Positions 1 to 17,983 of a stretch of DNA of 64,000 nt are shown here, in pieces. Position 1 is the first letter of the stretch, and the number at the start of each line of letters is the position of its first letter. The translations under genes were made by a program, and so were the position numbers. The notes beneath the pieces were generated by a model, which was given only the letters and a program-made list of their open reading frames with translations, ran no database searches and had not been told where the DNA came from. Source of the DNA: Aulosira sp. ZfuVER01 (GTDB lineage Bacteria > Cyanobacteriota > Cyanobacteriia > Cyanobacteriales > Nostocaceae); NCBI GenBank assembly GCA_034530615.2, contig JAVRCV020000008.1, positions 128,001 to 192,000 on the forward strand, written 5' to 3'.

Positions 1-1724
1 TTGCGAACTTACAACAAATGCAAGGGGTGATTCGTGAAGTATGCGATCGCTTCGGTCAAATTCACGGTGTCATTCATGCTGCGGGTGTGATGCCAGGAGG
101 AATGATCCAACTGAGGACACCGGAAGCGATCGCTAATCTGCTAGCGCCGAAAGTAACGGGGACTTTGGTATTAGATACTTTACTTCAGGATGGCGATTTA
201 GATTTCTTTGTTCTGTGTTCATCGCTCAATTCCTTTCTTGTAGGATTGGGACTAGTCGATTATTGCGCTGCAAATTCCTTTTTAGATGCCTTTGCTAACT
301 ATAAAGCTTCTCGCTCCAATATCTTTACAACTGCAATTAACTGGGACGGTTGGCAAGAGGTTGGACAAGCCGCTAACGTTAAACTCTCCGAACAACTCCA
401 ACAATGGCGTGATGCCAATTTCCAACAAGGTATCTTATCTCAAGAAGGAGTAGAGGCGTTTAAGCGCATCTTAGACAGTAGGTTGCCGCAAGTTATAGTA
501 TCAACTCAGGATTTTCTTTCTCGGTTCGAGCAGTTTAACGCAACTAAAGAATTGCAACATCTGCAATCTCAGCCACAGGCGAACTCATCTAAACCTACTC
601 ATTCCCGACCGCAATTGAGCCAGGCTTATGTTGGACCTCGCAATCAATTAGAGGAGACTATAGCCCAAATTTGGCAACAATCTTTAGGAATTGAGCCAAT
701 CGGCATTGACGATGACTTCTTTGAATTGGGAGGTGATTCTTTACTTGCAGTGCATTTAATCGCCAAAATTAGCGCCGCTACCCAAACAAAGTTATCATCC
801 CATAGCCTACTCGACGCACCGACGATTGCAGACTTAGCTGAATTAATTACTCAAAATGCCTCGCCATCTCAACTAGCTAATGGACAAGCAAAGCCAGAGT
901 TACCTTCAACCCTAGTAGAAATTCAGTCTGGTAGTTCTAAGCCGCCGCTTTTCCTCATCCATCCTGTTGGCGGTCACGTCTACGTCTATCGCGATTTAGC
1001 TCAATATTTAGGCTCAGACCAACCTGTTTATGGATTGCAGGCACAAGGTATTGATGGTAAAACTCCTCCTCTAACTAAAGTTGAGGAAATGGCAACTCAA
1101 TATCTTGAAGCACTGCGCGTTGTCCAACCGCATGGGACTTACTTTCTCGGTGGGTCCTCTTTTGGCGGAACCATCGCCTATGAAATGGCACAGCAACTCC
1201 AAGCGCAAGGGGAAAAAGTAGGGTTGCTTTTCCTCATAGATACTCCTAGTCTCGGTCATATGCCGTCAGAAAATATTGAAGATGATGGCATCAAAATCAT
1301 GTCTTATGCCTTGGGTGTAGGTGCTAATGTTCCTGTATCTATAGAATATCTGCGACAACTAAGTACCGATGAGCAACTGCACTACTTTTTGCAGCAAGGA
1401 AAAACAGCGTTGAAAATGCCTGCTGATTTTGGCTTAAGCGAGTTGCATCTTTACTACAATCTGTTCAAAATCAACACTAAAGCGATGCGAAATTATATAC
1501 CGCAAGCTTATCCAGGTCGCGTCATCTTTTTTAAAGCCAGCGATCGCGATTCCTTCAACCCCCAAAACCCAGAACTCGGTTGGCAAGATTTGGCAATGGC
1601 AGGGTTAGAAATCCACGAAGTTCCTGGTAATCACATTACAATGAACTTCCCACCACAAGTCCAAGTTATGGCTAAGTTGTTAAGGATATATCTGGAGAGC
1701 GATCCACAAAAACAAAACTTTTAA
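1..1724 (+). CDS. C-terminal part of a type I PKS or PKS/NRPS terminal module: ketoreductase - carrier protein - thioesterase (5' end outside the window)
   Basis: KR motifs GVIHAAGV and DYCAANSFLD; phosphopantetheine site FFELGGDSLL; TE motifs HPVGG, GSSFGG and GNH. The frame is open from the window edge. Confidence 0.9.
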   Translation, partial: ANLQQMQGVIREVCDRFGQIHGVIHAAGVMPGGMIQLRTPEAIANLLAPKVTGTLVLDTLLQDGDLDFFVLCSSLNSFLVGLGLVDYCAANSFLDAFANYKASRSNIFTTAINWDGWQEVGQAANVKLSEQLQQWRDANFQQGILSQEGVEAFKRILDSRLPQVIVSTQDFLSRFEQFNATKELQHLQSQPQANSSKPTHSRPQLSQAYVGPRNQLEETIAQIWQQSLGIEPIGIDDDFFELGGDSLLAVHLIAKISAATQTKLSSHSLLDAPTIADLAELITQNASPSQLANGQAKPELPSTLVEIQSGSSKPPLFLIHPVGGHVYVYRDLAQYLGSDQPVYGLQAQGIDGKTPPLTKVEEMATQYLEALRVVQPHGTYFLGGSSFGGTIAYEMAQQLQAQGEKVGLLFLIDTPSLGHMPSENIEDDGIKIMSYALGVGANVPVSIEYLRQLSTDEQLHYFLQQGKTALKMPADFGLSELHLYYNLFKINTKAMRNYIPQAYPGRVIFFKASDRDSFNPQNPELGWQDLAMAGLEIHEVPGNHITMNFPPQVQVMAKLLRIYLESDPQKQNF

Positions 1725-3738: not shown

Positions 3739-4428
3739 GTGATTTTGAAACTGAAATATGACAGTATGGCTGCTAAAAAACTGACTAATTCTGACAAACA
3801 CGTTGTTGTCGATGCAGAGCGACAACAAGGCAAAAATAAAAATAAGAGCATAGCTAGTAAAGCAACGCCAATCCCAAACATATCCTATAGTGTTGTCCAT
3901 GCTATTCGGGGACGAATTCGTTTTCGGATTCCTCGGTTAGCCAAAGATTCTGAGTATGCCAATAAACTCCAGCGATTGATAGAATCAGATGCTAGGATTA
4001 CAAATGTACGAATTAACCCTGCTGCCGCATCAATTGCGATCGCCTATCAACCTGGGGTAATATCAGGCGAAAAAATGCGATCGCATCTAGTTAATCTAAT
4101 TCAAACTGCCCCAAATATAGCTTTACCAGCCCCAGTCACAGCAAAAACAATTGCCAAAGCCATCTTGGATGCTGTAATTAACTTTATTGACGGTACACGT
4201 AACATCAACAAAGCGCGTACTGCTATTAAGCATCAAGAAGTGAAGCCAAATATTTGGGAACGGATACTAGGTAGCGCTAAAGCTGTCATCAAGGGGCTAA
4301 AGTCTGCAATTGTGTTTATATTGCCTAATCAACAGTGGCGATCGCAAAGTAGTAAAAAGAAATTAGGCTTGCAGCCATTAGCACCGCCACCTATGGCTGG
4401 AAGTAAACATCGCCTAGCTTTGCCATAA
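3739..4428 (+). CDS. HMA2/CoBaHMA-like domain protein
   Basis: YSVVHAIRGRIRFRIPRL...VRINPAAASIAIAY, an HMA-like pattern with an H-x(3)-GRxR basic motif and no CxxC. Start may be the ATG at 3766. Confidence 0.78.
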   Translation: MILKLKYDSMAAKKLTNSDKHVVVDAERQQGKNKNKSIASKATPIPNISYSVVHAIRGRIRFRIPRLAKDSEYANKLQRLIESDARITNVRINPAAASIAIAYQPGVISGEKMRSHLVNLIQTAPNIALPAPVTAKTIAKAILDAVINFIDGTRNINKARTAIKHQEVKPNIWERILGSAKAVIKGLKSAIVFILPNQQWRSQSSKKKLGLQPLAPPPMAGSKHRLALP

Positions 4429-4595: not shown

Positions 4596-5570
4596 ATGGG
4601 TACTCTTAATTTTGATCAACTTCCTAATGAGAATCTTTTAGTTAGAACCATACATAGTGCCGTTAAAGGCAGAGCTAGATATAAAGTGAATGGACTTTAT
4701 GGTTCGGAGGCTGTCAAAAGATATCTGGGATTTAGGTTGTCAAAAGAGAAAGGAATTGCCCAAGTTAGTGCTAATACTTGGACAGGAAATGTTCTGGTGA
4801 TTTTCCATCCTGATTTTAGCCCAAGTGCGATCGCACTTCTTATTCAAGATATTGTCCGAGATTACGTAAAAGAAGCCAGAAAACTAGTGCTAGAGACAGC
4901 ATCTATTAATAAAGGGATAGAAAAAGCTCAAAATCTACCTCAAGCCTTAAATCAAGTCAATAATCAATTAATTATCGCATCTGGGACTATTGGCGCTTTT
5001 GCTTTAGGAGCCGCATTGCTGCACAGATATAATCTGGATGAAAGCATATTGTTAGCCATTCAAAAGTTACACACACCAATTCTAGACAGCATCATGCTGG
5101 GTATCACGTCTCTAGGCGATCCACTGGCTTTGGTGTTGATTTGTTTGGGAGTAGAATTTTATCTGCGTTATCATCGTCGTCCCTACGCTACTCGCTTAGG
5201 TTTAGCTACAGCCAGTGCCATCAGCTTAAATTATCTGCTAAAAGTGATTTTTGGTCGGGCGCGTCCAGCACTGTGGGATCGAATTATTCATGTAGGTCAA
5301 CATAGCTTTCCCAGCGGTCACGCTATGGTGTCAATAGTGATTTACGGTTTCATCTGTTATATTTTGGCGGAGCAATTTCCCCAATGGCGCAAACAGATTT
5401 TCGCCTTGAGCGTTGTCTTAATTTTGTTAATAGGTTTTAGTCGGCTTTATTTGGGCGTACATTGGCCTACTGATGTGTTAGTTGGCTATGCTATCGGTTT
5501 AGCTTGGTTAGTTGCTTGTATTCTCACATTGGAAGTGCAGCCCAAATATAACTTGTCAGGTGGACATTAA
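4596..5570 (+). CDS. HMA2-like domain fused to a PAP2 family membrane phosphatase
   Basis: N-terminal IHSAVKGRARYKV domain; PAP2 motifs KVIFGRARP, SFPSGH and SRLYLGVHWPTDV intact; several hydrophobic helices. Confidence 0.88.
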   Translation: MGTLNFDQLPNENLLVRTIHSAVKGRARYKVNGLYGSEAVKRYLGFRLSKEKGIAQVSANTWTGNVLVIFHPDFSPSAIALLIQDIVRDYVKEARKLVLETASINKGIEKAQNLPQALNQVNNQLIIASGTIGAFALGAALLHRYNLDESILLAIQKLHTPILDSIMLGITSLGDPLALVLICLGVEFYLRYHRRPYATRLGLATASAISLNYLLKVIFGRARPALWDRIIHVGQHSFPSGHAMVSIVIYGFICYILAEQFPQWRKQIFALSVVLILLIGFSRLYLGVHWPTDVLVGYAIGLAWLVACILTLEVQPKYNLSGGH

Positions 5571-5857: not shown

Positions 5858-8800
5858 ATGAACAATCATTTCCCCGACTCCCGCCACAGTAAGAATCCTA
5901 TTGTTCGGGCAATACATACTGCTGTTAAAGGGAGAGCTAGATATAAGGTTGATGGACTTCATCACTCGGAGTCACTTAAACAATATATTGAGTTAAGGCT
6001 GAAAGAGGAAGCAGGGATTAGGGATGTCTTTGCTAATCCACTTACAGGTAATGTACTGGTAATCTTCCAACCAGATTTTAGCTTTCAAGCGATCGCCTGG
6101 CTCATCAAAGCTATTGTTTGCGATTTCCTCGAAAAAGGGAGAAAATCTCTAGCCAAGACACCTGTTATCAGCCCAGCTAAACATCTATCTTCCTCCTCTC
6201 TTGCAAAAAGAGGAAACCATACCAGCAAAATGAGCAAGTTGACTACATCTGGTCAGGAGCAACAAATTTTACCCTGGCATATTTTAAAAGCAGATACTGC
6301 GATCGCAGATTTACACACATCAATAACATCAGGATTAGCTACTAATACTGCTCAAGCCAACTTGCTCAAATATGGAGCAAATATCCTACCCATATCTGAA
6401 AAACGCTCTAAGCTGAGTATTTTTATTGACCAATTTAAATCTTTGCCAGTAGGACTACTAAGTATAGCGGCAGGTTTGTCAATTGCTACTGGGGGCATAG
6501 CTGATGCTGTAGTAATTATGGGAGTTGTATTCATTAATGCTGTAATTGGCTACGCCACAGAAAGCAACTCAGAAAAGATTATTAATTCACTCAAGCATCT
6601 AGTCAAACCATCTGCTGTGGTCATTAGAGATGGAATTTCGCAAGAAATCAGCGCCACGGAGATTGCGATCGGAGATATTTTAGTACTTAGACCGGGCAGT
6701 TATGTGCCAGCTGATGCCAGACTAATTGAAGCCAATCGTTTGACTGTAGATGAGTCGGCTTTAACAGGTGAGAGTTTGCCCGTTCCCAAAAACACCGAAC
6801 CCCTGAGCAAACAGGATATACCCCTTGGCGATCGCGTGAATATGGTCTACATGGGAACCTTAGTTACTGGCGGTCAAGGACTGGCTGTAGTGGTTGCTAC
6901 AGGCAAATTTACCGAAATGGGCAGAATTCAAACCCTGGTTTCTGAAAGCCAAATGCCAGAAACGCCCATGCAAAAACAACTCGACCAAGCAGGTAGCCAA
7001 CTTGTTGTCGTATCGGGGGCGGTTTGTGCAGTTGTTTTTGGTATCGGTCTGTTGCGGGGATATGGTTGGATTCAGATGTTGAAATCATCCATTTCCTTGG
7101 CTGTGGCTGCGGTTCCCGAAGGATTGCCAACCATTGCAACTACAACCCTAGCTTTAGGAATCGCCAACATGAGACGGCATAACGTCTTGATTCGGCGTTT
7201 GGATGCGGTGGAAACCTTGGGTTCTGTACAGACAATTTGCTTGGATAAAACAGGCACGCTCACAGAAAATAAAATGTCTGTGGTTGAACTATATGCAGAT
7301 AGCAAATCTATCCAAGTGTCATCTGATGGTAAATTTATTGCCCAATCGCAAGATATTAACCCTTACAACTGCGATCGACTCTTAAAGCTAATTCATGTCT
7401 CAGTACTGTGCAATGAGAGTGAAGTCCACAAAAATTCCGATGGAGAATATGTAGTCAAAGGTTCAGCTACAGAGAATGCTCTAATTTATTTGGCAATTAG
7501 CGCTGGGGTAGATGTTATCCAACTCAAAGAAAATTATCCATGTTGCCGAACTAATCACCGTTCAGAACATCAGAATTTCATGAGTACGGTGCATACCATA
7601 AAACACGAGGATACTTCATCTACTTTGGTTGCTGCTACAACAGAAATCGGTTCCTTACAACCATTGGCGATAAAGAAAAAACGCCGGGGTCGTCCGCCGT
7701 CATCGCGTCGTGCAGAAAAGCAACTTGTGGCAATTAAAGGTAGCCCTTCTGAAGTGCTGGAAATGTCTACCCAACAAATTAAAGATGGCGAACTAGTACT
7801 GCTAACAGAAGCAGATAGACAAGCCATCGATAATGAAAACGAAGTCATGGCGGGTAAAGGACTGCGGATATTAGGGGCAGCTTACACTCATGTTGATGCC
7901 GCACAAACAAATGGCAACGTTCCGCACGATGTGATTTGGTTGGGTTTGATTGGGATGACAGACCCGATTAGAAATGGTGTCAAAGACTTGATGGGTGTCT
8001 TCCATCAAGCGGGGATTAATACAGTCATGATCACCGGGGATCAAAGTCCCACAGCTTACGCTATTGGTAAAGAATTGAATTTGAGTCGCAGCGAGCAACT
8101 AGAAATCCTCGATTCTACTCATCTTAACAACCTTGACTCAGAGTTGATGAAAGGATTATGCGATCGCGTTAATGTTTTTGCGAGGGTTAGTCCTGCCAAT
8201 AAATTACAAATCGTCCAAGCGCTGCAAAGCGCAGGTAAAGTTGTTTCCATGACTGGAGATGGTATTAATGATGCACCTGCTTTAAAAGTTGCTGATGTTG
8301 GCATCGCAATGGGGCATACAGGCACAGATGCAGCGCGGGAAGTTGCAGATATTGTCTTAGAAAATGACAATTTGGAAACCATGATTATTGCTGTCAGTCA
8401 TGGACGGACAATTTATAACAACATCAGAAAATCTGTGCATTTTTTGCTGTCTACCAACTTGAGCGAAATCATGGTGATGTTGACAGCGACAGCCGCAGGT
8501 ATTGGTCAGCCTTTAACTGCCATGCAACTATTGTGGCTGAATTTGGTGACAGATATCTTCCCCGGATTAGCTTTAGCTTTGGAACCACCAGAACCCGATG
8601 TTTTAAATCAACCACCCCGCAATCCTGAAGAACGAATTATCAAAACATCCGATTTTCAAAGAATTATTTTTGAATCAGCGACAATTTCTGTTAGTTCCTT
8701 AGCAGCATATAGCTACGCAATTAGCCGCTATGGTATTAGCGCACAAGCCAGCACCATCGGTTTTATGAGTCTGACAATGGCGCAACTGCTACATACTCTT

Positions 8801-9040
8801 AGCTGTCGTTCGCCGCAACACAGTATTTTCAGTTCCGAAAAACTGCCAGCTAACCGTTATTTAACTGTAGCGCTGGGAGGCTCCTTTGGTCTGCAAATAT
8901 TAGCAGCAGCAGTACCAGGACTCAGACAAATGCTGAACTTGACAGCAATTAATCTGGTAGATAGTGCTGTGATTGGTACTAGTGCTTTACTGCCATTTGT
9001 AGTGAATGAAGGTACGAAACCAATTCAAAATTCGTCTTGA
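5858..9040 (+). CDS. P2A (Ca2+-type) P-type ATPase with an N-terminal HMA2-like domain
   Basis: TGES, DKTGTLT, TGD and GDGIND motifs; SERCA-like M4 VAAVPEGL, M5 STNLSE and M6 WLNLVTD; N-terminal IHTAVKGRARYKV domain. Confidence 0.92.
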   Translation: MNNHFPDSRHSKNPIVRAIHTAVKGRARYKVDGLHHSESLKQYIELRLKEEAGIRDVFANPLTGNVLVIFQPDFSFQAIAWLIKAIVCDFLEKGRKSLAKTPVISPAKHLSSSSLAKRGNHTSKMSKLTTSGQEQQILPWHILKADTAIADLHTSITSGLATNTAQANLLKYGANILPISEKRSKLSIFIDQFKSLPVGLLSIAAGLSIATGGIADAVVIMGVVFINAVIGYATESNSEKIINSLKHLVKPSAVVIRDGISQEISATEIAIGDILVLRPGSYVPADARLIEANRLTVDESALTGESLPVPKNTEPLSKQDIPLGDRVNMVYMGTLVTGGQGLAVVVATGKFTEMGRIQTLVSESQMPETPMQKQLDQAGSQLVVVSGAVCAVVFGIGLLRGYGWIQMLKSSISLAVAAVPEGLPTIATTTLALGIANMRRHNVLIRRLDAVETLGSVQTICLDKTGTLTENKMSVVELYADSKSIQVSSDGKFIAQSQDINPYNCDRLLKLIHVSVLCNESEVHKNSDGEYVVKGSATENALIYLAISAGVDVIQLKENYPCCRTNHRSEHQNFMSTVHTIKHEDTSSTLVAATTEIGSLQPLAIKKKRRGRPPSSRRAEKQLVAIKGSPSEVLEMSTQQIKDGELVLLTEADRQAIDNENEVMAGKGLRILGAAYTHVDAAQTNGNVPHDVIWLGLIGMTDPIRNGVKDLMGVFHQAGINTVMITGDQSPTAYAIGKELNLSRSEQLEILDSTHLNNLDSELMKGLCDRVNVFARVSPANKLQIVQALQSAGKVVSMTGDGINDAPALKVADVGIAMGHTGTDAAREVADIVLENDNLETMIIAVSHGRTIYNNIRKSVHFLLSTNLSEIMVMLTATAAGIGQPLTAMQLLWLNLVTDIFPGLALALEPPEPDVLNQPPRNPEERIIKTSDFQRIIFESATISVSSLAAYSYAISRYGISAQASTIGFMSLTMAQLLHTLSCRSPQHSIFSSEKLPANRYLTVALGGSFGLQILAAAVPGLRQMLNLTAINLVDSAVIGTSALLPFVVNEGTKPIQNSS

Positions 9041-9210
9041 AAAGTTTGCTCAACGGGGGGAACCCCCGCACGCAACTTTTCGCAAAATTCAAAATTCAAA
9101 ATAATTCCAGCCTTTGATAGTGCCTTACCACTCTTCCTCACTATCTCAAACTCTCAAATCCTTACGCTCTTAATTCTCTGCGCTTTTGCGTCTTTGCGTG
9201 AGAAAAATCT

Positions 9211-10410
9211 ATGAAAAAAGACTTTTTATTTACATCTGAATCTGTCACCGAAGGACATCCTGATAAACTTTGCGATCAAATTAGCGATGCCATTGTCGAT
9301 CAATTTCTCCGGCGAGACCCCTTTGCCAGAGTCATTACTGAATGTGCGGTATCGACGGCGATTGTCTTCATTTCTGCTAGGTTTGAGTCGGATGCGATCG
9401 TAGATTTTACAAAAATAGCCAGACAAGTAATTAAGCAGGTGGGTTATGACCAGTCTGATTTTAATGCTAAGACTTGTAGCATTATGACGAGTTTGAAAGA
9501 ATTACCTAACAGTGAAAATCGCTGTTGGGATGAAAAAAAACTCTCGGAACAGGAGATAGAAGATATTCCCGTCAAAGACCAAGTGACGGTATTCGGTTTT
9601 GCTTGCAATCAAACTAAAGTTTTGATGCCACTTCCTATTTGGCTGGCACACCAATTAGCTAGAAGATTAACCAATGTCAGGCAGGAGAAAATATTGCCAT
9701 ACCTCGCACCTGATGGTAAAACTCAGGTAGCAATTGAATACAAAAATAGCAAACCTCATCGAATTTATAGTATTACTTTAATTGCCAGTCAAACCAAACT
9801 ATCAGCTTCAAATGCTGCTAATCTCAAACGCCTTCAAGAAGATTTGCGAGCAAGTGTAATTGATGTTGTTTTTGCAGACGAAGAACTCAAACCCGATGCT
9901 AACACCAGAATATTTATTGACTCTGACGATCCCTTTGCAATTGGTGGCCCTTCTGTTCATTCGGGGTTAACGGGTAGGAAGAATGCCATAGATACTTACG
10001 GCGAATATTCCCGCCACAGTGGTGCAGCACTAAGTGGCAAAGACCCCACACGCATAGATAGAGTCGGAGCTTATGCAGCGCGTTATGCTGCGAAGAATAT
10101 AGTTGCAGCAGGTTTAGCTGATGAATGTGAGGTGCAACTTACCTACTCTATTGGACTTTCTCGCCCAGTGAGCATTCAAGTAGAAACCTTTGGCACAGGT
10201 AAGATGGATGATGAAGAAATTGCTGTAATTTTAGAAAAGAATTTTGATTTCCGCCTTGCAGGAATTATTCGGGAGTTTAATTTAAGATATTTGCCTGCAA
10301 TTGTCAAAGGCGGATTTTATAAAAAGCTTGCGGCTTACGGTCATGTAGGTAGGTTAGATATTGGTGTTTTGCCTTGGGAAGAAATTGATAAAGTGCCGAT
10401 TTTGCAATGA
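9211..10410 (+). CDS. metK: Methionine adenosyltransferase (MetK) paralogue with a divergent substrate pocket
   Basis: FTSESVTEGHPDK, PDGKTQV, GLTGRK, SGKDP and AAYGH retained; the GAGDQG motif is altered to PVKDQV. Confidence 0.88.
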   Translation: MKKDFLFTSESVTEGHPDKLCDQISDAIVDQFLRRDPFARVITECAVSTAIVFISARFESDAIVDFTKIARQVIKQVGYDQSDFNAKTCSIMTSLKELPNSENRCWDEKKLSEQEIEDIPVKDQVTVFGFACNQTKVLMPLPIWLAHQLARRLTNVRQEKILPYLAPDGKTQVAIEYKNSKPHRIYSITLIASQTKLSASNAANLKRLQEDLRASVIDVVFADEELKPDANTRIFIDSDDPFAIGGPSVHSGLTGRKNAIDTYGEYSRHSGAALSGKDPTRIDRVGAYAARYAAKNIVAAGLADECEVQLTYSIGLSRPVSIQVETFGTGKMDDEEIAVILEKNFDFRLAGIIREFNLRYLPAIVKGGFYKKLAAYGHVGRLDIGVLPWEEIDKVPILQ

Positions 10411-10478: not shown

Positions 10479-10751
10479 TTATTCTATGGGTTTAGCTGAC
10501 TTCATCGGCTGTTCAGCAAGCTCAGTTCTGGCTTCTGTTAAGATATCCTCCCAAGCGTCGTTGATTTCTGCGATCGCTCCTTTGTTGTTTTCATAGAAAA
10601 GAATTGCACGTTTAATCGCTGCTTTGGTAATTGGTCTAGCTACACGCGCGATCGCTGGTGCAAATAATGGTAGAAGTACGATTGCTGCAATACCTGTTAC
10701 ACCAAGGCCTTCAACTAAATCTTCAATGTCTGGTAAAAATTTAATTGACAT
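10479..10751 (-). CDS. DUF5132-like small membrane-associated protein
   Basis: GLGVTGIAAIVLLPLFAP...RPITKAAIK...WEDILTEARTEL pattern: a hydrophobic segment followed by an amphipathic helix. Confidence 0.72.
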   Translation of the reverse strand: MSIKFLPDIEDLVEGLGVTGIAAIVLLPLFAPAIARVARPITKAAIKRAILFYENNKGAIAEINDAWEDILTEARTELAEQPMKSAKPIE

Positions 10752-10830: not shown

Positions 10831-11700
10831 ATGCGGATCTTTATGAGCAATAGTCCTGCGGTTAAAACAATTCTTGTACTTGCAGCTAGTCCCGTAGATC
10901 GAGCTAGACTGCGCTTAGACATAGAAGTGCGTGAGATTGAAGAAGGGTTGCGACTGTCTAAATATCGCGACCAAATTAAGTTGGTATCTCGATGGGCTGT
11001 GAGAATCAAAGATCTGCGTCGAGTATTGTTAGATTTAGAACCCCAAATCGTGCATTTTTGCGGTCATGGTGTTGATGAAGGAATCATATTTGAAGACGAA
11101 CAAGGCAAAGGTAAACTAGTCACTACAGAAGCTTTGGCGAATCTGTTTGAGTTATTTGCAGGTCGAGTTGAGTGTATTGTACTCAATGCTTGTTATTCCC
11201 AAGCGCAAGCCAAAGCGATGATTCAGCACGTTGGTTATGTAATTGGGATGAGTAAAGCTATTGGGGATGAAGCTGCAATTAATTTTGCCGTGGGGTTTTA
11301 TGATGCTCTTGGTGGCGGACGTAATGTAGAAGACGCTTACAAGTTTGGTTGCAATGCAATTCAACTGCAAGGAATTCCAGAGCATTTGACTCCCATTATC
11401 CAAATTAATACGGCATTAAAGGCTGCATTGGGATCTACGCAAACAACTACCATCACACCTCAACCAGCAAAGCCTGCTCCGAAAATAGATCGAATGAAGT
11501 TGATTAAACTACTCAATGATATACCGCCGCAACAGTTGGATATGCTGTTGTTTGCAGTAGACGCGCCTAATGGTGTAGTTCCACCACTCACTGCTCCCCA
11601 AGGCGATCGCGCTGCTGCATTATTAAGATGGGCACAAAGTCCAACAGGTTGTGGTTTGGCAGCACTGCAACAAGAATTAGATAACATCCTTTGTTCGTAG
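10831..11700 (+). CDS. CHAT (caspase-like) domain protein with a C-terminal effector-associated-like helical adaptor domain
   Basis: ILVLAASP, LRLDIEVREI, catalytic His in VHFCGHG and Cys in LNACYS; the last ~65 aa are duplicated at the N-terminus of the next gene. Confidence 0.88.
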   Translation: MRIFMSNSPAVKTILVLAASPVDRARLRLDIEVREIEEGLRLSKYRDQIKLVSRWAVRIKDLRRVLLDLEPQIVHFCGHGVDEGIIFEDEQGKGKLVTTEALANLFELFAGRVECIVLNACYSQAQAKAMIQHVGYVIGMSKAIGDEAAINFAVGFYDALGGGRNVEDAYKFGCNAIQLQGIPEHLTPIIQINTALKAALGSTQTTTITPQPAKPAPKIDRMKLIKLLNDIPPQQLDMLLFAVDAPNGVVPPLTAPQGDRAAALLRWAQSPTGCGLAALQQELDNILCS

Positions 11701-11728
11701 TTGCGCTTTAGCGCTAAAGCGCAACTAC
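11697..11728. repeat. Perfect 32-bp palindrome (REP-like cyanobacterial repeat)
   Basis: gtagttgcgctttagc|gctaaagcgcaactac, overlapping the CHAT stop codon. Confidence 0.85.
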
Positions 11729-11863
11729 AAACCGAAACGATCGCTTGTGTAATTAATTGAAAACGGTGCGTTTACTCCGTGAGACAACATATCCTACATT
11801 TAAGGGAAAATTGGCGTAGGTTTTGTTGTTCTAAAATAGAACATTACTCTTGTCAACCCGTTA

Positions 11864-14353
11864 ATGGTTACACCCCAACGCGATCGCTTTGCACTCATCA
11901 AGCTGCTGAATGAGATAACGCCGCAAGATTTGGATATGCTTTTGTTTGCAGTGGATGCGCCGAATAATATAGTTCCACCACTGACAGCACCCCAAGGCGA
12001 TCGCGTTTCTGCATTATTGAGATGGGTGGAAGGATCGACGGGTTGTGGTTTGCGGGTATTGCAACAGGAATTGGCAGAAATTGTCCCGCTACCGCAGAAC
12101 GACGAAATTGCAACAGCACAATTGTGGAATATACCATACCCGCGCAACCCGTTTTTTACAGCGCGTGAAGCTGTATTGCAAGAATTGCGGGAAGCTTTGT
12201 TAACCAAGAAGCTAGCAGCATTAAGCGGCTTGGGTGGGATTGGTAAAACTCAGACTGCAATTGAGTATGCTTATTGCTATAAAGATGAGTATCAGCAAAT
12301 ACTTTGGGTAAGGGCGGCTTCACAGCAAGAATTGGTGTCGGGTTTGGTGAAGCTGGCAGAATTACTCAAGTTACCCATCAGCCAAGAACAGGATGAAAGC
12401 ATAATAATTAACGCAGTTAAGCAGTGGTTAGCAACACATAACGACTGGCTGTTGATTGTAGATAACGCCGATGAAATAGCGATGCTGCGGGAGTATCTAC
12501 CAGGGGCGCATCAAGGTTATGTGTTGTTGACTACCCGCGCTCAGGCGACGGGGATATATCAGCAAATTGAAATTAAAAAGTTGCAACCGGAAGATGGGGC
12601 GCTGTTGTTGCTACGGCGTGCGAAACTGATTGCAGAAAATGCGGGGTTAAATGCAGCAACAGAAGAAGAATGCTGTTTAGCAGCAAACATCTCGCGGGAA
12701 ATGGACGGTTTACCCCTAGCATTAGATCAAGCAGCAGCGTTTATTGAAGAAACTCCTTCGAGTTTGGCGGAGTATTTGCAATTTTACCGGGAAGAAGCGG
12801 CGAGACTGCTGGCGGAACGAGGCGAACTGGCAATTGATCATCCCAGCGTGAGCATCACCTTTTCCCTAGCTTTTGAGAAAGTAATGCAACGTAACCCCAC
12901 CGCCGCCGATTTGATTGGCGTTTGCGCTTTTTTAGCACCCGATGCGATTCCTGAAGAAGTTTTTACCGAGGGTGCGGCAGAATTAGGGGAAAACCTCAGC
13001 CAATTAGCAAACAAACCCCTAGATTTTGTCAAAGTCATCGCCGAAGCGGGACGCTTTTCGCTGATTTACCGCAACTCGTCTAATAAAACCTTGGATATTC
13101 ACCGCCTAGTGCAGGAAGTGTTAAAAGCCGAGATGGATGAAGACAGCCGCCGTCTTTGGGCAGAAAGGACTGTTTGTGCAGTTACAAAAGTCTTTCCGAA
13201 TGTTGAATATGCAAATTGGCGGCTATGTGAGCGACTTTTACCCCATGCTAGAGTTGCAATTGATTGGATAAAGCAGTGTCAATTTGAGTTGGAAGCAGCC
13301 GCTTTGTTACTTGCTAAGACTGGCTACTACTTGCAGGAACGTGGACAGTACAGTGAAGCCGAACCTCTGTATCAAAAAGCATTGTCACTCAGGCAACGGC
13401 TGCTGGGAGAAGAGCATCCCTCTGTCGCCACCAGTTACAACAACCTGGCTTATCTCTACGAATCCCAAGGCAGGTACAGTGAAGCCGAACCTCTGTATCA
13501 AAAAGCATTGTCACTCAGGCAACGGCTGCTGGGAGAAGAGCATCCCCATGTCGCCATCAGTTACAACAATCTGGCTTATCTCTACGAATCCCAAGGCAGG
13601 TACAGTGAAGCCGAACCTCTGTTTCAAAAAGCATTGTCACTTAGGCAACGGCTGCTGGGAGAAGAGCATCCCGATGTCGCCATCAGTTACAACAATCTGG
13701 CTTTACTCTACAAATCTCGAGGCAGGTACAGTGAAGCCGAACCTCTGTTTCAAAAAGCATTATCACTAATGCAACGGCTGCTGGGAGAAGAGCATCCCCA
13801 TGTCGCCACCAGTTACAACAATCTGGCTTCACTCTACTATTCCCAAGGCAGGTACAGTGAAGCCGAACCTCTGTTTCAAACAGCTTTGTCACTAAAGCAA
13901 CGGCTGCTGGGAGAAGAGCATCCTTATGTTGCCCAAAGTTACCACAATCTGGCAGGACTCTACGATTCCCAAGGCAGGTACAGTGAAGCCGAACCTCTGT
14001 ATCTAAAAGCTTTGTCACTTTATCAACGGCTGCTGGGAGAAGAGCATCCTGATGTTGCTCAAAGTTACCACAATTTGGCAGGACTCTACGATTCCCAAAG
14101 CAGGTACAGTGAAGCCGAACCTCTGTATCTAAAAGCATTGTCACTTAGGCAACGGCTGCTGGGAGAAGAGCATCCCCATGTCGCCACCAGTTACAACAAT
14201 CTGGCTTCACTCTACTATTCCCAAGGCAGGTACAGTGAAGCCGAACTTCTGTGTCAAAAAGCTTTGGAAATTGCGGAACGCAGTTTAGGGGTGAATCATC
14301 CCAAAACAATTACTATCCGTAATAATCTGCAATTATTGCGCGATCGCACTTAA
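11864..14353 (+). CDS. STAND NTPase (NB-ARC) - TPR protein (NLR-like) with an N-terminal adaptor domain
   Basis: WNIPYPRNPFFTAR, Walker A GLGGIGKT, Walker B WLLIVDNAD, LLTTR, GLPLAL and IHRLVQ; 7 near-identical 42-aa TPRs plus a capping repeat. Confidence 0.92.
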   Translation: MVTPQRDRFALIKLLNEITPQDLDMLLFAVDAPNNIVPPLTAPQGDRVSALLRWVEGSTGCGLRVLQQELAEIVPLPQNDEIATAQLWNIPYPRNPFFTAREAVLQELREALLTKKLAALSGLGGIGKTQTAIEYAYCYKDEYQQILWVRAASQQELVSGLVKLAELLKLPISQEQDESIIINAVKQWLATHNDWLLIVDNADEIAMLREYLPGAHQGYVLLTTRAQATGIYQQIEIKKLQPEDGALLLLRRAKLIAENAGLNAATEEECCLAANISREMDGLPLALDQAAAFIEETPSSLAEYLQFYREEAARLLAERGELAIDHPSVSITFSLAFEKVMQRNPTAADLIGVCAFLAPDAIPEEVFTEGAAELGENLSQLANKPLDFVKVIAEAGRFSLIYRNSSNKTLDIHRLVQEVLKAEMDEDSRRLWAERTVCAVTKVFPNVEYANWRLCERLLPHARVAIDWIKQCQFELEAAALLLAKTGYYLQERGQYSEAEPLYQKALSLRQRLLGEEHPSVATSYNNLAYLYESQGRYSEAEPLYQKALSLRQRLLGEEHPHVAISYNNLAYLYESQGRYSEAEPLFQKALSLRQRLLGEEHPDVAISYNNLALLYKSRGRYSEAEPLFQKALSLMQRLLGEEHPHVATSYNNLASLYYSQGRYSEAEPLFQTALSLKQRLLGEEHPYVAQSYHNLAGLYDSQGRYSEAEPLYLKALSLYQRLLGEEHPDVAQSYHNLAGLYDSQSRYSEAEPLYLKALSLRQRLLGEEHPHVATSYNNLASLYYSQGRYSEAELLCQKALEIAERSLGVNHPKTITIRNNLQLLRDRT
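13349..14260 (+). repeat. 126-bp intragenic tandem repeat (TPR units)
   Basis: tacagtgaagccgaac recurs every 126 bp from 13349 to 14231. Confidence 0.95.
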
Positions 14354-16462: not shown

Positions 16463-17983
16463 TTACCAAGAGTTGAGCGATCGCATCTGGGGTGTCTTTT
16501 TCTGTTGATGTGCTTCCATTCGAGTTAAGACATCATCCAGAATTGTCACGGCATCAGCGATAAACGGCCCTTTATTTAACATGACACATTCAGCCCGTTC
16601 TGCCATTGCCGCATCAGTAATCTCGGCGCGTGAGGGAATGCCTTTCTTTACGAGATTTTCTAATACCTGTGTAGCCCAAATTACCGGAACATGAGCAGCT
16701 TCACATAGCCAAAGAATTTCTTCTTGAATTTCTGCCAAACGTTGATAGCCAATTTCAATTGCTAAATCTCCTCTGGCAATCATAATGCCAAAGGGTTGTT
16801 TGGCTGCTGCCTGCACAATCAATTCTGGAAGATGGAGCACAGCTTGGGGTGTTTCAATCTTGGCGACAATCGCAGGTGGTGTATTTGGGTGTCGGCGTTC
16901 TAACTCCCATTGCAAAAGCTCAATATCCGCAGCCTGTTGGACAAAAGAATAACCCACCATATCAGCATGAATTGCGACAAAATCCAAATCCTGCAAGTCT
17001 TTATCTGTTAAGGGACTCAGATGTAAATCAGTGTCAGGAAAGTTAAGACCTTTTTCATGGGGAATTTTGTTGCCCTTCAAGTTAGCATGGGTGATGCGTA
17101 ACATTACCCCATCAGGCGTTAAAGCTTCAACTTGCGCACCAAGACTGCCATCATCAATCCAAACAATAGCACCAACTTTTAATTTATCTAAGACTTCGGG
17201 GAGAGAGCAATTTGCTTGAAAACAGTCAGAACAAATTGTGCTGGGTAAATTTCCAGTTAGCAAGATACAATCACCCCGGTATAAACGTTGCGGAGATTTG
17301 CGGGCGATCGCCATGCTAATTCTCGGCTTAGGGCCAGCTAAATCCATTAATATCTTGCAAGGATATCCTGTTTCTCTACTCGCCAGACGCACATTAGCAA
17401 TCATCGCTGACCATTCTACAGGAGTATCATGGGCACAGTTAATGCGCACGCAATCACATCCGCGTTGAATTAAATCTCGCACGAATTCGTAATTGCTGGC
17501 TGCTTGCGTCGGTAAAGTCACCATAATTCTGACTCGGCGGCGATCGCGTGTATTGCCGAATAACTCTTCTGTATGTTGTTGCAACAAGCGATCGCCTGCA
17601 AAAAACTCCTCAATTGATGGACGATTAGGTAAGATATCTGGATCTGCCTGACAAATTGCTCCCAAAGTTGCGATCGCTGCATCTAAATTCGCTAATACCC
17701 GTCCTTCAATTCGCCCCAACGAAGTTAAACCCCAAGGCATCAAAGCTGCTTGCAGATGACGCAAATCATGCCGTCTCAGTGCCAAGTAGTAGGCAAAGTT
17801 GAGGCTACTGCTAACAAAAGCTTCTCTTTGAATGTGCGATCGCCACTCGTTAAAAATTTTTTCTCCCTCTTCTATCACTAACTGACGCAACTGTTGCAGC
17901 GTATTCAGCAAATTTTGAGCATCTAATAGGTCTAAACCTGAATAATTACATAAAATATCGTGATTTTTATCTAAATTAGACAT
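16463..17983 (-). CDS. pyk: Pyruvate kinase family protein (form lacking the usual C-terminal regulatory domain)
   Basis: RINCAH, MDLAGPKPR, AKIET, IARGDLAIE, ATQVLE, RAEITD and CVMLNKG motifs. Confidence 0.88.
   Translation of the reverse strand: MSNLDKNHDILCNYSGLDLLDAQNLLNTLQQLRQLVIEEGEKIFNEWRSHIQREAFVSSSLNFAYYLALRRHDLRHLQAALMPWGLTSLGRIEGRVLANLDAAIATLGAICQADPDILPNRPSIEEFFAGDRLLQQHTEELFGNTRDRRRVRIMVTLPTQAASNYEFVRDLIQRGCDCVRINCAHDTPVEWSAMIANVRLASRETGYPCKILMDLAGPKPRISMAIARKSPQRLYRGDCILLTGNLPSTICSDCFQANCSLPEVLDKLKVGAIVWIDDGSLGAQVEALTPDGVMLRITHANLKGNKIPHEKGLNFPDTDLHLSPLTDKDLQDLDFVAIHADMVGYSFVQQAADIELLQWELERRHPNTPPAIVAKIETPQAVLHLPELIVQAAAKQPFGIMIARGDLAIEIGYQRLAEIQEEILWLCEAAHVPVIWATQVLENLVKKGIPSRAEITDAAMAERAECVMLNKGPFIADAVTILDDVLTRMEAHQQKKTPQMRSLNSW

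Follow-up and report, generated by a model that had tools for sequence, protein, structure and literature searches.

A MetK-like protein with a rebuilt methionine pocket, encoded beside a P2A-type cation pump

MAT is usually regarded as a family with one function, the synthesis of SAM. As described in an excerpt of PMC8638259, Met displaces PPPi from ATP, after which the PPPi is hydrolysed to PPi and Pi. An excerpt of PMC3853416 has the Met amino group bound by E55 and D238 and the carboxyl group by Q98 and K269, and it names D163 and D238 as ribose ligands, F230 as the adenine-stacking residue, and I102 as the contact of the Met side chain; a figure legend in PMC8727953 gives the same residue set. 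The excerpt of PMC3853416 also describes an active archaeal MAT (from T. kodakarensis) in which the methionine-carboxylate site has been rebuilt, and which retains the D238 equivalent, the aromatic stack, and a hydrophobic Met contact. A second metK that is tied to one gene cluster, as in the locus described below, is GrpR, which by annotation belongs to the E. coli propanediol microcompartment locus; it differs in keeping E55, Q98, D118, F230, D238, and K269, and is an ordinary MAT by sequence.

The closest solved relatives of the pump encoded at our locus are the P2A Ca2+ pumps LMCA1 (from Listeria), SPCA1, and SERCA. Small CoBaHMA/HMA_2 and DUF5132 proteins beside a cation transport gene, which our locus also encodes, are reportedly present in ferrosome fez clusters, where the pump is of the P1B type. 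They likewise occur in the ccyA (calcyanin) neighbourhood of Microcystis, according to part of a preprint (bioRxiv 10.1101/2024.07.07.602159) that equates HMA_2 with CoBaHMA, and in the available text of which metK, adenosylmethionine, and P-type ATPase have 0 occurrences. The mark of a ferrosome- or calcyanin-type cluster, a P1B-6 ATPase or ccyA, is lacking at our locus, where the pump is P2A.

Here, we describe a pump module in a 64-kb stretch of DNA (the window), whose MetK-like gene, judged by its residues, belongs to a MAT-family variant in which the methionine site is not preserved. A literature description of this family or of the pump module was not found, judged by the titles and abstract starts of mostly open-access papers; Gaschignard 2024 (CoBaHMA) may list the pump's domain architecture. 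The module consists of the following features:

5858..9040, + strand: P2A-type cation pump of 1060 aa with an N-terminal HMA_2 (CoBaHMA-type) domain (Pfam, NCBIfam, alignments)
9041..9210, no strand: 170-nt spacer between the pump and the MetK-like gene, with a dispersed genome repeat (blastn against the genome gives 61 rows, the query itself among them)
9211..10410, + strand: MetK-like protein of 399 aa (Pfam, TIGR01034, alignment to E. coli MetK)

Residues and family of the MetK-like protein

The MetK-like protein matches all three Pfam S-AdoMet synthetase domains, and its score with the TIGR01034 equivalog (383.2 bits) lies above the cut-off of 309.4 bits, which explains its routine annotation. 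It is about 41% identical to E. coli MetK (PDB 1RG9, 7LOO, 8BB1). A three-way alignment of E. coli MetK (annotated record), the MetK-like protein, and the other MetK of the same genome, whose register agrees with alignments to PDB MAT chains, delivers the following correspondence. Kept, with the window numbering in brackets, are H14 (H16), D16 (D18), E42 (E44), D118 (D123), D163 (D168), K165 (K170), F230 (F242), R244 (R256), K245 (K257), K265 (K277), and D271 (D283); the triphosphate/Mg/K site (H14, D16, E42, R244, K245, K265, and D271) is complete. In contrast to E. coli MetK, none of the methionine ligands is kept, E55 having become R57, Q98 L98, D238 H250, and K269 R281. Further changes are I102 to E102, G117 to K122 (in the GAGDQG motif), and R229 to P241, so that D163 and F230 are the adenosine contacts retained in the window copy and D238 and I102 those that are gone.

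These residues had been called in the initial annotation by manual alignment to E. coli MetK. Against the fetched E. coli MetK, all four exchanges of methionine ligands proved exact, as did the alteration of the GAGDQG motif, and the retention of H14, D16, E42, K165, R244/K245, K265, and D271 was borne out. D118, likewise listed as retained, is so in the window copy; as a family feature it does not hold, the position being Asn in 69 of 80 related loci (the best of 462) and in 66 of 120 close homologues.

The fold itself is that of MAT. An AF2 model of a 76%-identical homologue (L008; 129 alignment rows) has three domains, a pLDDT of 96, a TM of 0.87-0.90 to E. coli MAT chains, and a gate loop that is predicted to be ordered (block pLDDT 90-97); modelling of the window protein from 40 alignment rows of close relatives gave a poor result (pLDDT 68).

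Scanning genome contigs yielded 462 confirmed stretches, the best 80 of which (63-93% identical to the MetK-like protein) were analysed. They come from Cyanobacteria, cultured ones among them, Nitrospirota, Desulfobacterota-type bins, Methylomirabilis, Brocadia, and proteobacteria. Across these best 80 of 462 loci, with the window added where the total is 81, R57 was observed in 77/80, H250 and R281 in 81/81, D18 and E44 in 80/80, H16 in 78/80, and R256, K257, K277, and D283 in 81/81, and the F230 position was Phe in 60/81. Among the 120 closest database homologues, R57, H250, and R281 as well as H14, D163, and K165 are present in all 120, F230 in 85, and the acidic pair of the gate loop, D107 and E108, in 113 and 100, respectively; the I102 position is polar and variable. 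The anticipated clade with conserved R55/H238 thus exists.

More divergent members were obtained by a profile search of 50%-identity representatives. Fourteen were aligned (41-56% identical to the window protein), and as they were picked by the His/Arg pattern, their counts of H250 (13/14) and R281 (14/14) are partly so by construction. R256, K257, K277, and D283 are found in 14/14 and an acidic residue at D163 also in 14/14, position 55 is Arg in seven and His in five, K165 is Lys in 4/14, and F230 is aromatic in 2/14; the gate loop is often short, its acids being absent from several members. These counts indicate a wider family with a constant phosphate/metal site, a lost Met site, and a half-kept adenosine site.

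That the MetK-like gene is a decaying metK duplicate is refuted by the conservation data and deserves almost no credence. A remnant with an internal deletion (L078) does show that the module can be lost, but the substitutions are invariant across phyla, contrary to the unconserved drift that decay would entail, and the comparison with the closest relative (dN 0.034, dS 0.49) yields a dN/dS of about 0.07, a value of purifying selection that rests on one pair, dS being saturated in four of five pairs. In addition, the mean tree distance of the MetK-like proteins is below that of canonical MetK from the same genomes (0.57 vs 0.79).

A canonical metK elsewhere in the genome, as had been expected, was indeed present: tblastn of the window's genome gave exactly two MetK matches, the MetK-like gene and a 49%-identical gene on contig C36, whose product is canonical at all positions compared. 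The ORF beside it is presumably a phosphoribulokinase. Among 46 carrier genomes hand-picked from the best 80 loci, 45 hold a second, lower-identity MetK, the exception being a metagenome bin of unknown completeness. Forty second copies from 39 of those 45 genomes are all canonical at 16 positions, with F or W at the F230 position in 40/40 (Trp in two). Likewise, of 301 genomes screened from the window's phylum, 18 gave a best match below 1e-170, and each of these 18 had two matches, so that the paralogue was not found as sole MetK in any near-complete genome of these two sets. Given the R57/H250/R281 clade, the canonical metK elsewhere, and the purifying selection, the MetK-like protein is very probably not the cell's SAM synthetase. 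As public sources label such proteins SAM synthetases, a multi-phylum clade is probably mis-annotated.

It may still be asked whether the protein makes SAM, or a SAM analogue, through a re-wired site in which R57 and R281 hold the Met carboxylate and the gate-loop acids the amine. D107 and E108 could indeed replace the lost Met ligands and are conserved in close homologues, the TIGR01034 cut-off is passed, the homologue model is nearly identical in fold to E. coli MAT, and the archaeal MATs provide a precedent for rebuilt carboxylate ligands (PMC3853416, in excerpt). The archaeal enzymes, however, keep D238 and the hydrophobic Met contact, both of which are missing here; the I102 position is polar and variable, several divergent members are without the gate-loop acids, and the paralogue did not occur alone in the near-complete genomes examined. 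We therefore consider such a re-wired synthetase quite improbable.

A motif scan of 401 genomes from the phylum of genome G042 gave one new carrier, plasmid searches returned just MetK-type records with 40-50% identity, and an atlas search retrieved MAT clusters exclusively. The one match in a motif scan of viral contigs is a phage MetK (L166:4646-5713, - strand) adjoining DNA methylases, which has His at the D238 position and retains E55 and Q98 (both by eye) as well as K269. Separately, many MetK proteins of 780-1240 aa (among P0010-P0121) bear Pfam accessions that we take to be typical of inteins and homing endonucleases.

The adjoining pump and its coupling to the MetK-like gene

The initial annotation dealt with the MetK-like protein in isolation from its partner, which is the upstream CoBaHMA-P2A pump and not a PKS. 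A PKS/NRPS tail at window positions 18-1724 was considered as a partner and set aside as local, as the 160 loci searched gave a single weak match to it (30% over 148 aa). The pump gene ends at most 430 nt upstream of the MetK-like gene, on the same strand, in 77 of the best 80 of 462 loci; two of the other three are without upstream sequence, and the third is the deletion remnant L078, which still holds a piece of the pump. In 25 of 90 intact pairs, the two genes overlap by 1 or 4 nt.

The pump has intact catalytic motifs, including the phospho-Asp463 in DKTGT, TGES, PEGL, and GDGIND, and all M4-M6 cation ligands. Its NCBIfam scores stay under the equivalog cut-offs (614 vs 798 for PMR1-type and 522 vs 703 for SERCA-type pumps). 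As in LMCA1, SPCA1, and SERCA, the phosphorylation, TGES, and M4-M6 ligand motifs are found in 89 of 90 paired pumps, and equivalents of T441, E442, K515, R560, and D627 in 90 of 90. Unlike those pumps, the window-type pumps have the CoBaHMA-type N-terminal domain, a long and fully supported stem in the tree, a MetK-like partner, and Arg in place of the Phe in the adenine pocket of the N-domain, which in the window is encoded here:

7559..7561, + strand: codon of pump Arg568 (position calculated by counting to residue 568 from the ORF start at 5858)

We take the Arg568 site to be SERCA F487 and assign the SERCA numbers of the other pump positions in the same way. F487 is described as an ATP-cleft residue in an excerpt of PMC7313052 and is placed at the adenine position in one of PMC5259720. 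The site aligns without gaps with the Phe of LMCA1 and SPCA1, and Na,K-ATPase likewise has Phe. Arg occupies it in 90 of 90 paired pumps, followed two residues later by Glu in 87 (Gln in two); 81 have Asn at the K492 position. Phe is not universal, as another pump of the window's genome (contig C41) has Leu. Among the pumps compared, the Arg appears to be confined to this clade, which a quick tree of 53 rows separates from the other pumps by a branch of length 1.29 and support 100. A basic insertion of about 36 aa in the pump N-domain (window 7600-7725) is absent from most relatives and present in a single copy in the genome, and several relatives carry N-domain insertions of other lengths.

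The association was also examined in reverse by searching for the pump in metagenomes, which gave 79 loci with 77 readable rows (36 Arg, 30 Phe, and 11 not covering the site). Where at least 200 nt of downstream sequence were available, a MetK-like gene followed 25 of 30 Arg pumps vs none of 24 Phe pumps. Adjacency is not obligatory, since three pump lineages (five loci) without an adjacent MetK-like gene nest inside the Arg clade in a quick tree. Anecdotally, two separate cyanobacteria-like lineages without the adjoining gene (L085-L088 and L111) share a Gln at the second position past the Arg, and the L121 pump, also without a MetK-like neighbour, keeps Glu there. The sole divergent member with genomic context (G370, L167), which is 49% identical and by eye carries K165Q, F230L, and D271E, starts a few bases past an Arg pump.

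Over 38 genomes, patristic distances of the MetK-like protein correlate with those of the pump at 0.78 and with those of canonical MetK at 0.56, and of 17 supported MetK-like splits, six conflict with the pump tree vs nine with the canonical MetK tree. In FastTree phylogenies, the window's pump and MetK-like gene group with Microseira and Hydrococcus-type copies and its canonical MetK with Nostocales, a discordance that suggests joint transfer of the two genes.

This coupling invites a further explanation, namely that the MetK-like protein is a largely non-catalytic subunit that would sense ATP, PPPi, or polyphosphate and, docked on the cytoplasmic head of the pump, regulate or energise it. 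Tight gene coupling with overlaps, co-transfer, and the alteration of the pump's nucleotide domain in exactly this clade are in line with it, and MAT folds do bind protein partners, as Mat2A-Mat2B in an excerpt of PMC8638259. The full conservation of the catalytic metal site speaks against a non-catalytic role, and the three long fusions that might have tied the partners together are singletons with differing breakpoints and missing partner parts, which look like deletions or assembly errors; overall, we deem a sensing subunit unlikely. These three were the only candidates for true pump-MetK fusions among 120 long proteins listed and were rejected. Pump and MetK-like pieces are joined at four different breakpoints in L078:7202-8807 and in proteins P0003, P0004, and P0074, which are probably deletions or assembly errors.

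Possible chemistry of the gene pair

The explanation that we put first, tentatively and as somewhat short of probable, is that the MetK-like protein is an enzyme coupled to the pump and retaining, of the two MAT half-reactions, only that of triphosphate: it would bind and hydrolyse triphosphate without methionine. It would be a neofunctionalised MAT-fold enzyme that serves one P2A pump clade and makes no SAM. The Mg/K/phosphate site of the second MAT step would be retained, with the methionine pocket filled by basic residues; the substrate would be free PPPi, the end of a polyphosphate, or ATP's own triphosphate, and its hydrolysis would link phosphate turnover to Ca2+/Mg2+ pumping by the adjoining pump. 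We infer the loss of SAM synthesis, the triphosphatase activity, the substrate, the ion, and any contact with the pump.

The retention of the second-step residues together with the exchange of Met ligands for Arg, His, and Arg fits triphosphate handling without Met. The D238N and D118N mutants of E. coli MetK are reportedly much more impaired in SAM synthesis than in PPPi hydrolysis. Furthermore, a MAT1A mutant is a tripolyphosphatase, to go by the title of a cited paper. A link to phosphate is also sensible for a pump of this type, since P2A pumps likely evolved to stop Ca2+ from precipitating phosphate, as stated in part of a 2023 review on P-type ATPases, in the text of which polyphosphate, pyrophosphate, and adenosylmethionine have 0 occurrences. 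Counting against pure triphosphate hydrolysis, H14 and usually F230 are kept, so that ATP may still bind as in MAT, and D163 is Asp in every close homologue and acidic in every divergent one.

The latter residues are the starting point for an adenosyltransferase, in which R57, H250, and R281 would position a phosphate, a carboxylate, or a sulfur oxyanion for attack on C5' of ATP bound as in MAT. The old Met pocket lined by three basic residues, the invariance of H14, D163, and K165 with F230 in most close homologues, and the gate loop that is predicted to be ordered would all suit such an enzyme. The second ribose ligand, D238, is nevertheless missing, divergent members show erosion of F230, K165, and the gate loop, and a recurring gene for biosynthesis or downstream use was not found in the neighbourhoods, the pump being the sole near-constant neighbour; we regard an adenosyltransferase as doubtful. 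The initial annotation had left the choice between an adenosyltransferase and a triphosphatase in place of a SAM synthetase. Of these, the triphosphatase is now the better fit: what erodes in divergent members is the adenine-stacking Phe together with K165 and the gate loop, and not the phosphate/metal residues. The adenosyltransferase option keeps some support from D163.

A bolder variant extends to the pump, which might be energised by a nucleoside-free donor. Arg568 would pair with the conserved pocket Glu and fill the adenine site, the phosphoryl group would come from tri- or polyphosphate, and the MetK-like partner would supply or clear triphosphate. The equivalents of E442, K515, R560, and L562 are conserved, however, and an Arg could also stack on adenine, which makes a nucleoside-free donor rather improbable. 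If true, it would present a P-type pump with a MAT fold as energy-coupling subunit.

Both genes of the pair encode proteins in which a conserved ligand pocket has been remodelled within one clade, and this points to a new chemistry, common to the two, that connects phosphate metabolism with cation pumping; the pair probably acts on triphosphate in an as yet undescribed manner. The MetK-like protein can be tested cheaply, as it is soluble, is carried by cultured cyanobacteria, and is amenable to standard assays.

Surroundings of the module

In the window, the module is flanked by three further genes:

3739..4428, + strand: stand-alone HMA_2 (CoBaHMA-type) protein (Pfam)
4596..5570, + strand: HMA_2-PAP2 phosphatase fusion (Pfam)
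10479..10751, - strand: small DUF5132 membrane protein, encoded convergently to the MetK-like gene (Pfam)

Neighbours were searched for in 160 loci (128 of the clade and 32 of the outgroup). Small HMA_2/DUF5132-type proteins occur in about half of the related loci, and a DUF5132 homologue in 42 of the 160, all 42 being clade loci; PAP2 matched in just two of 160, which makes the HMA_2-PAP2 gene a local addition. A second HMA_2/DUF5132 cluster of the same genome (contig C25, about 66000-70600; L082:6027-10617) is centred on a P1B-type ATPase and, we assume, resembles ferrosome-type clusters.

Phosphate-regulon neighbours are weakly enriched (14/128 clade vs 1/32 outgroup loci), as are other divalent-cation transporters (19/128 vs 0/32); the clade set holds about six times as much DNA as the outgroup, and the queries were picked from the clade. 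The 64-kb window itself contains no phosphate-regulon genes apart from a distant ABC-ATPase match (28%). A tandem match to the Pho-box-like pattern used was not found, and a promoter/terminator scan stayed at chance level (12 vs 19.4 and 6 vs 6.6). Near some copies (L167:14125-16300, L089/L109, L011-L015, L041, L076, and L121) lie phosphonate ABC, exopolyphosphatase, pst, PhoH2, and ornithine-lipid genes.

In Nitrospirota/Desulfobacterota-type loci, a repeat-like protein of 205-248 aa is encoded directly 5' of the pump (L015:3935-4627 and 25 other loci), for which, including a 227-aa copy, Pfam and NCBIfam gave no match. Nostocales loci (L024, L027, L031, L040, L050, and others) have, upstream of the module and in divergent orientation, a pyridoxamine-phosphate-oxidase-like gene (24 loci) and ChaB (12 loci), which suggests a general-stress island. 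Further along the window, a third pyruvate-kinase-like gene (16463-17983, - strand) is about 30% identical to the other two of the genome, with PRK14725 as best match (below cut-off), and the region 10831-14353 encodes a CHAT-domain protein and an NB-ARC/TPR protein that have a short domain in common.
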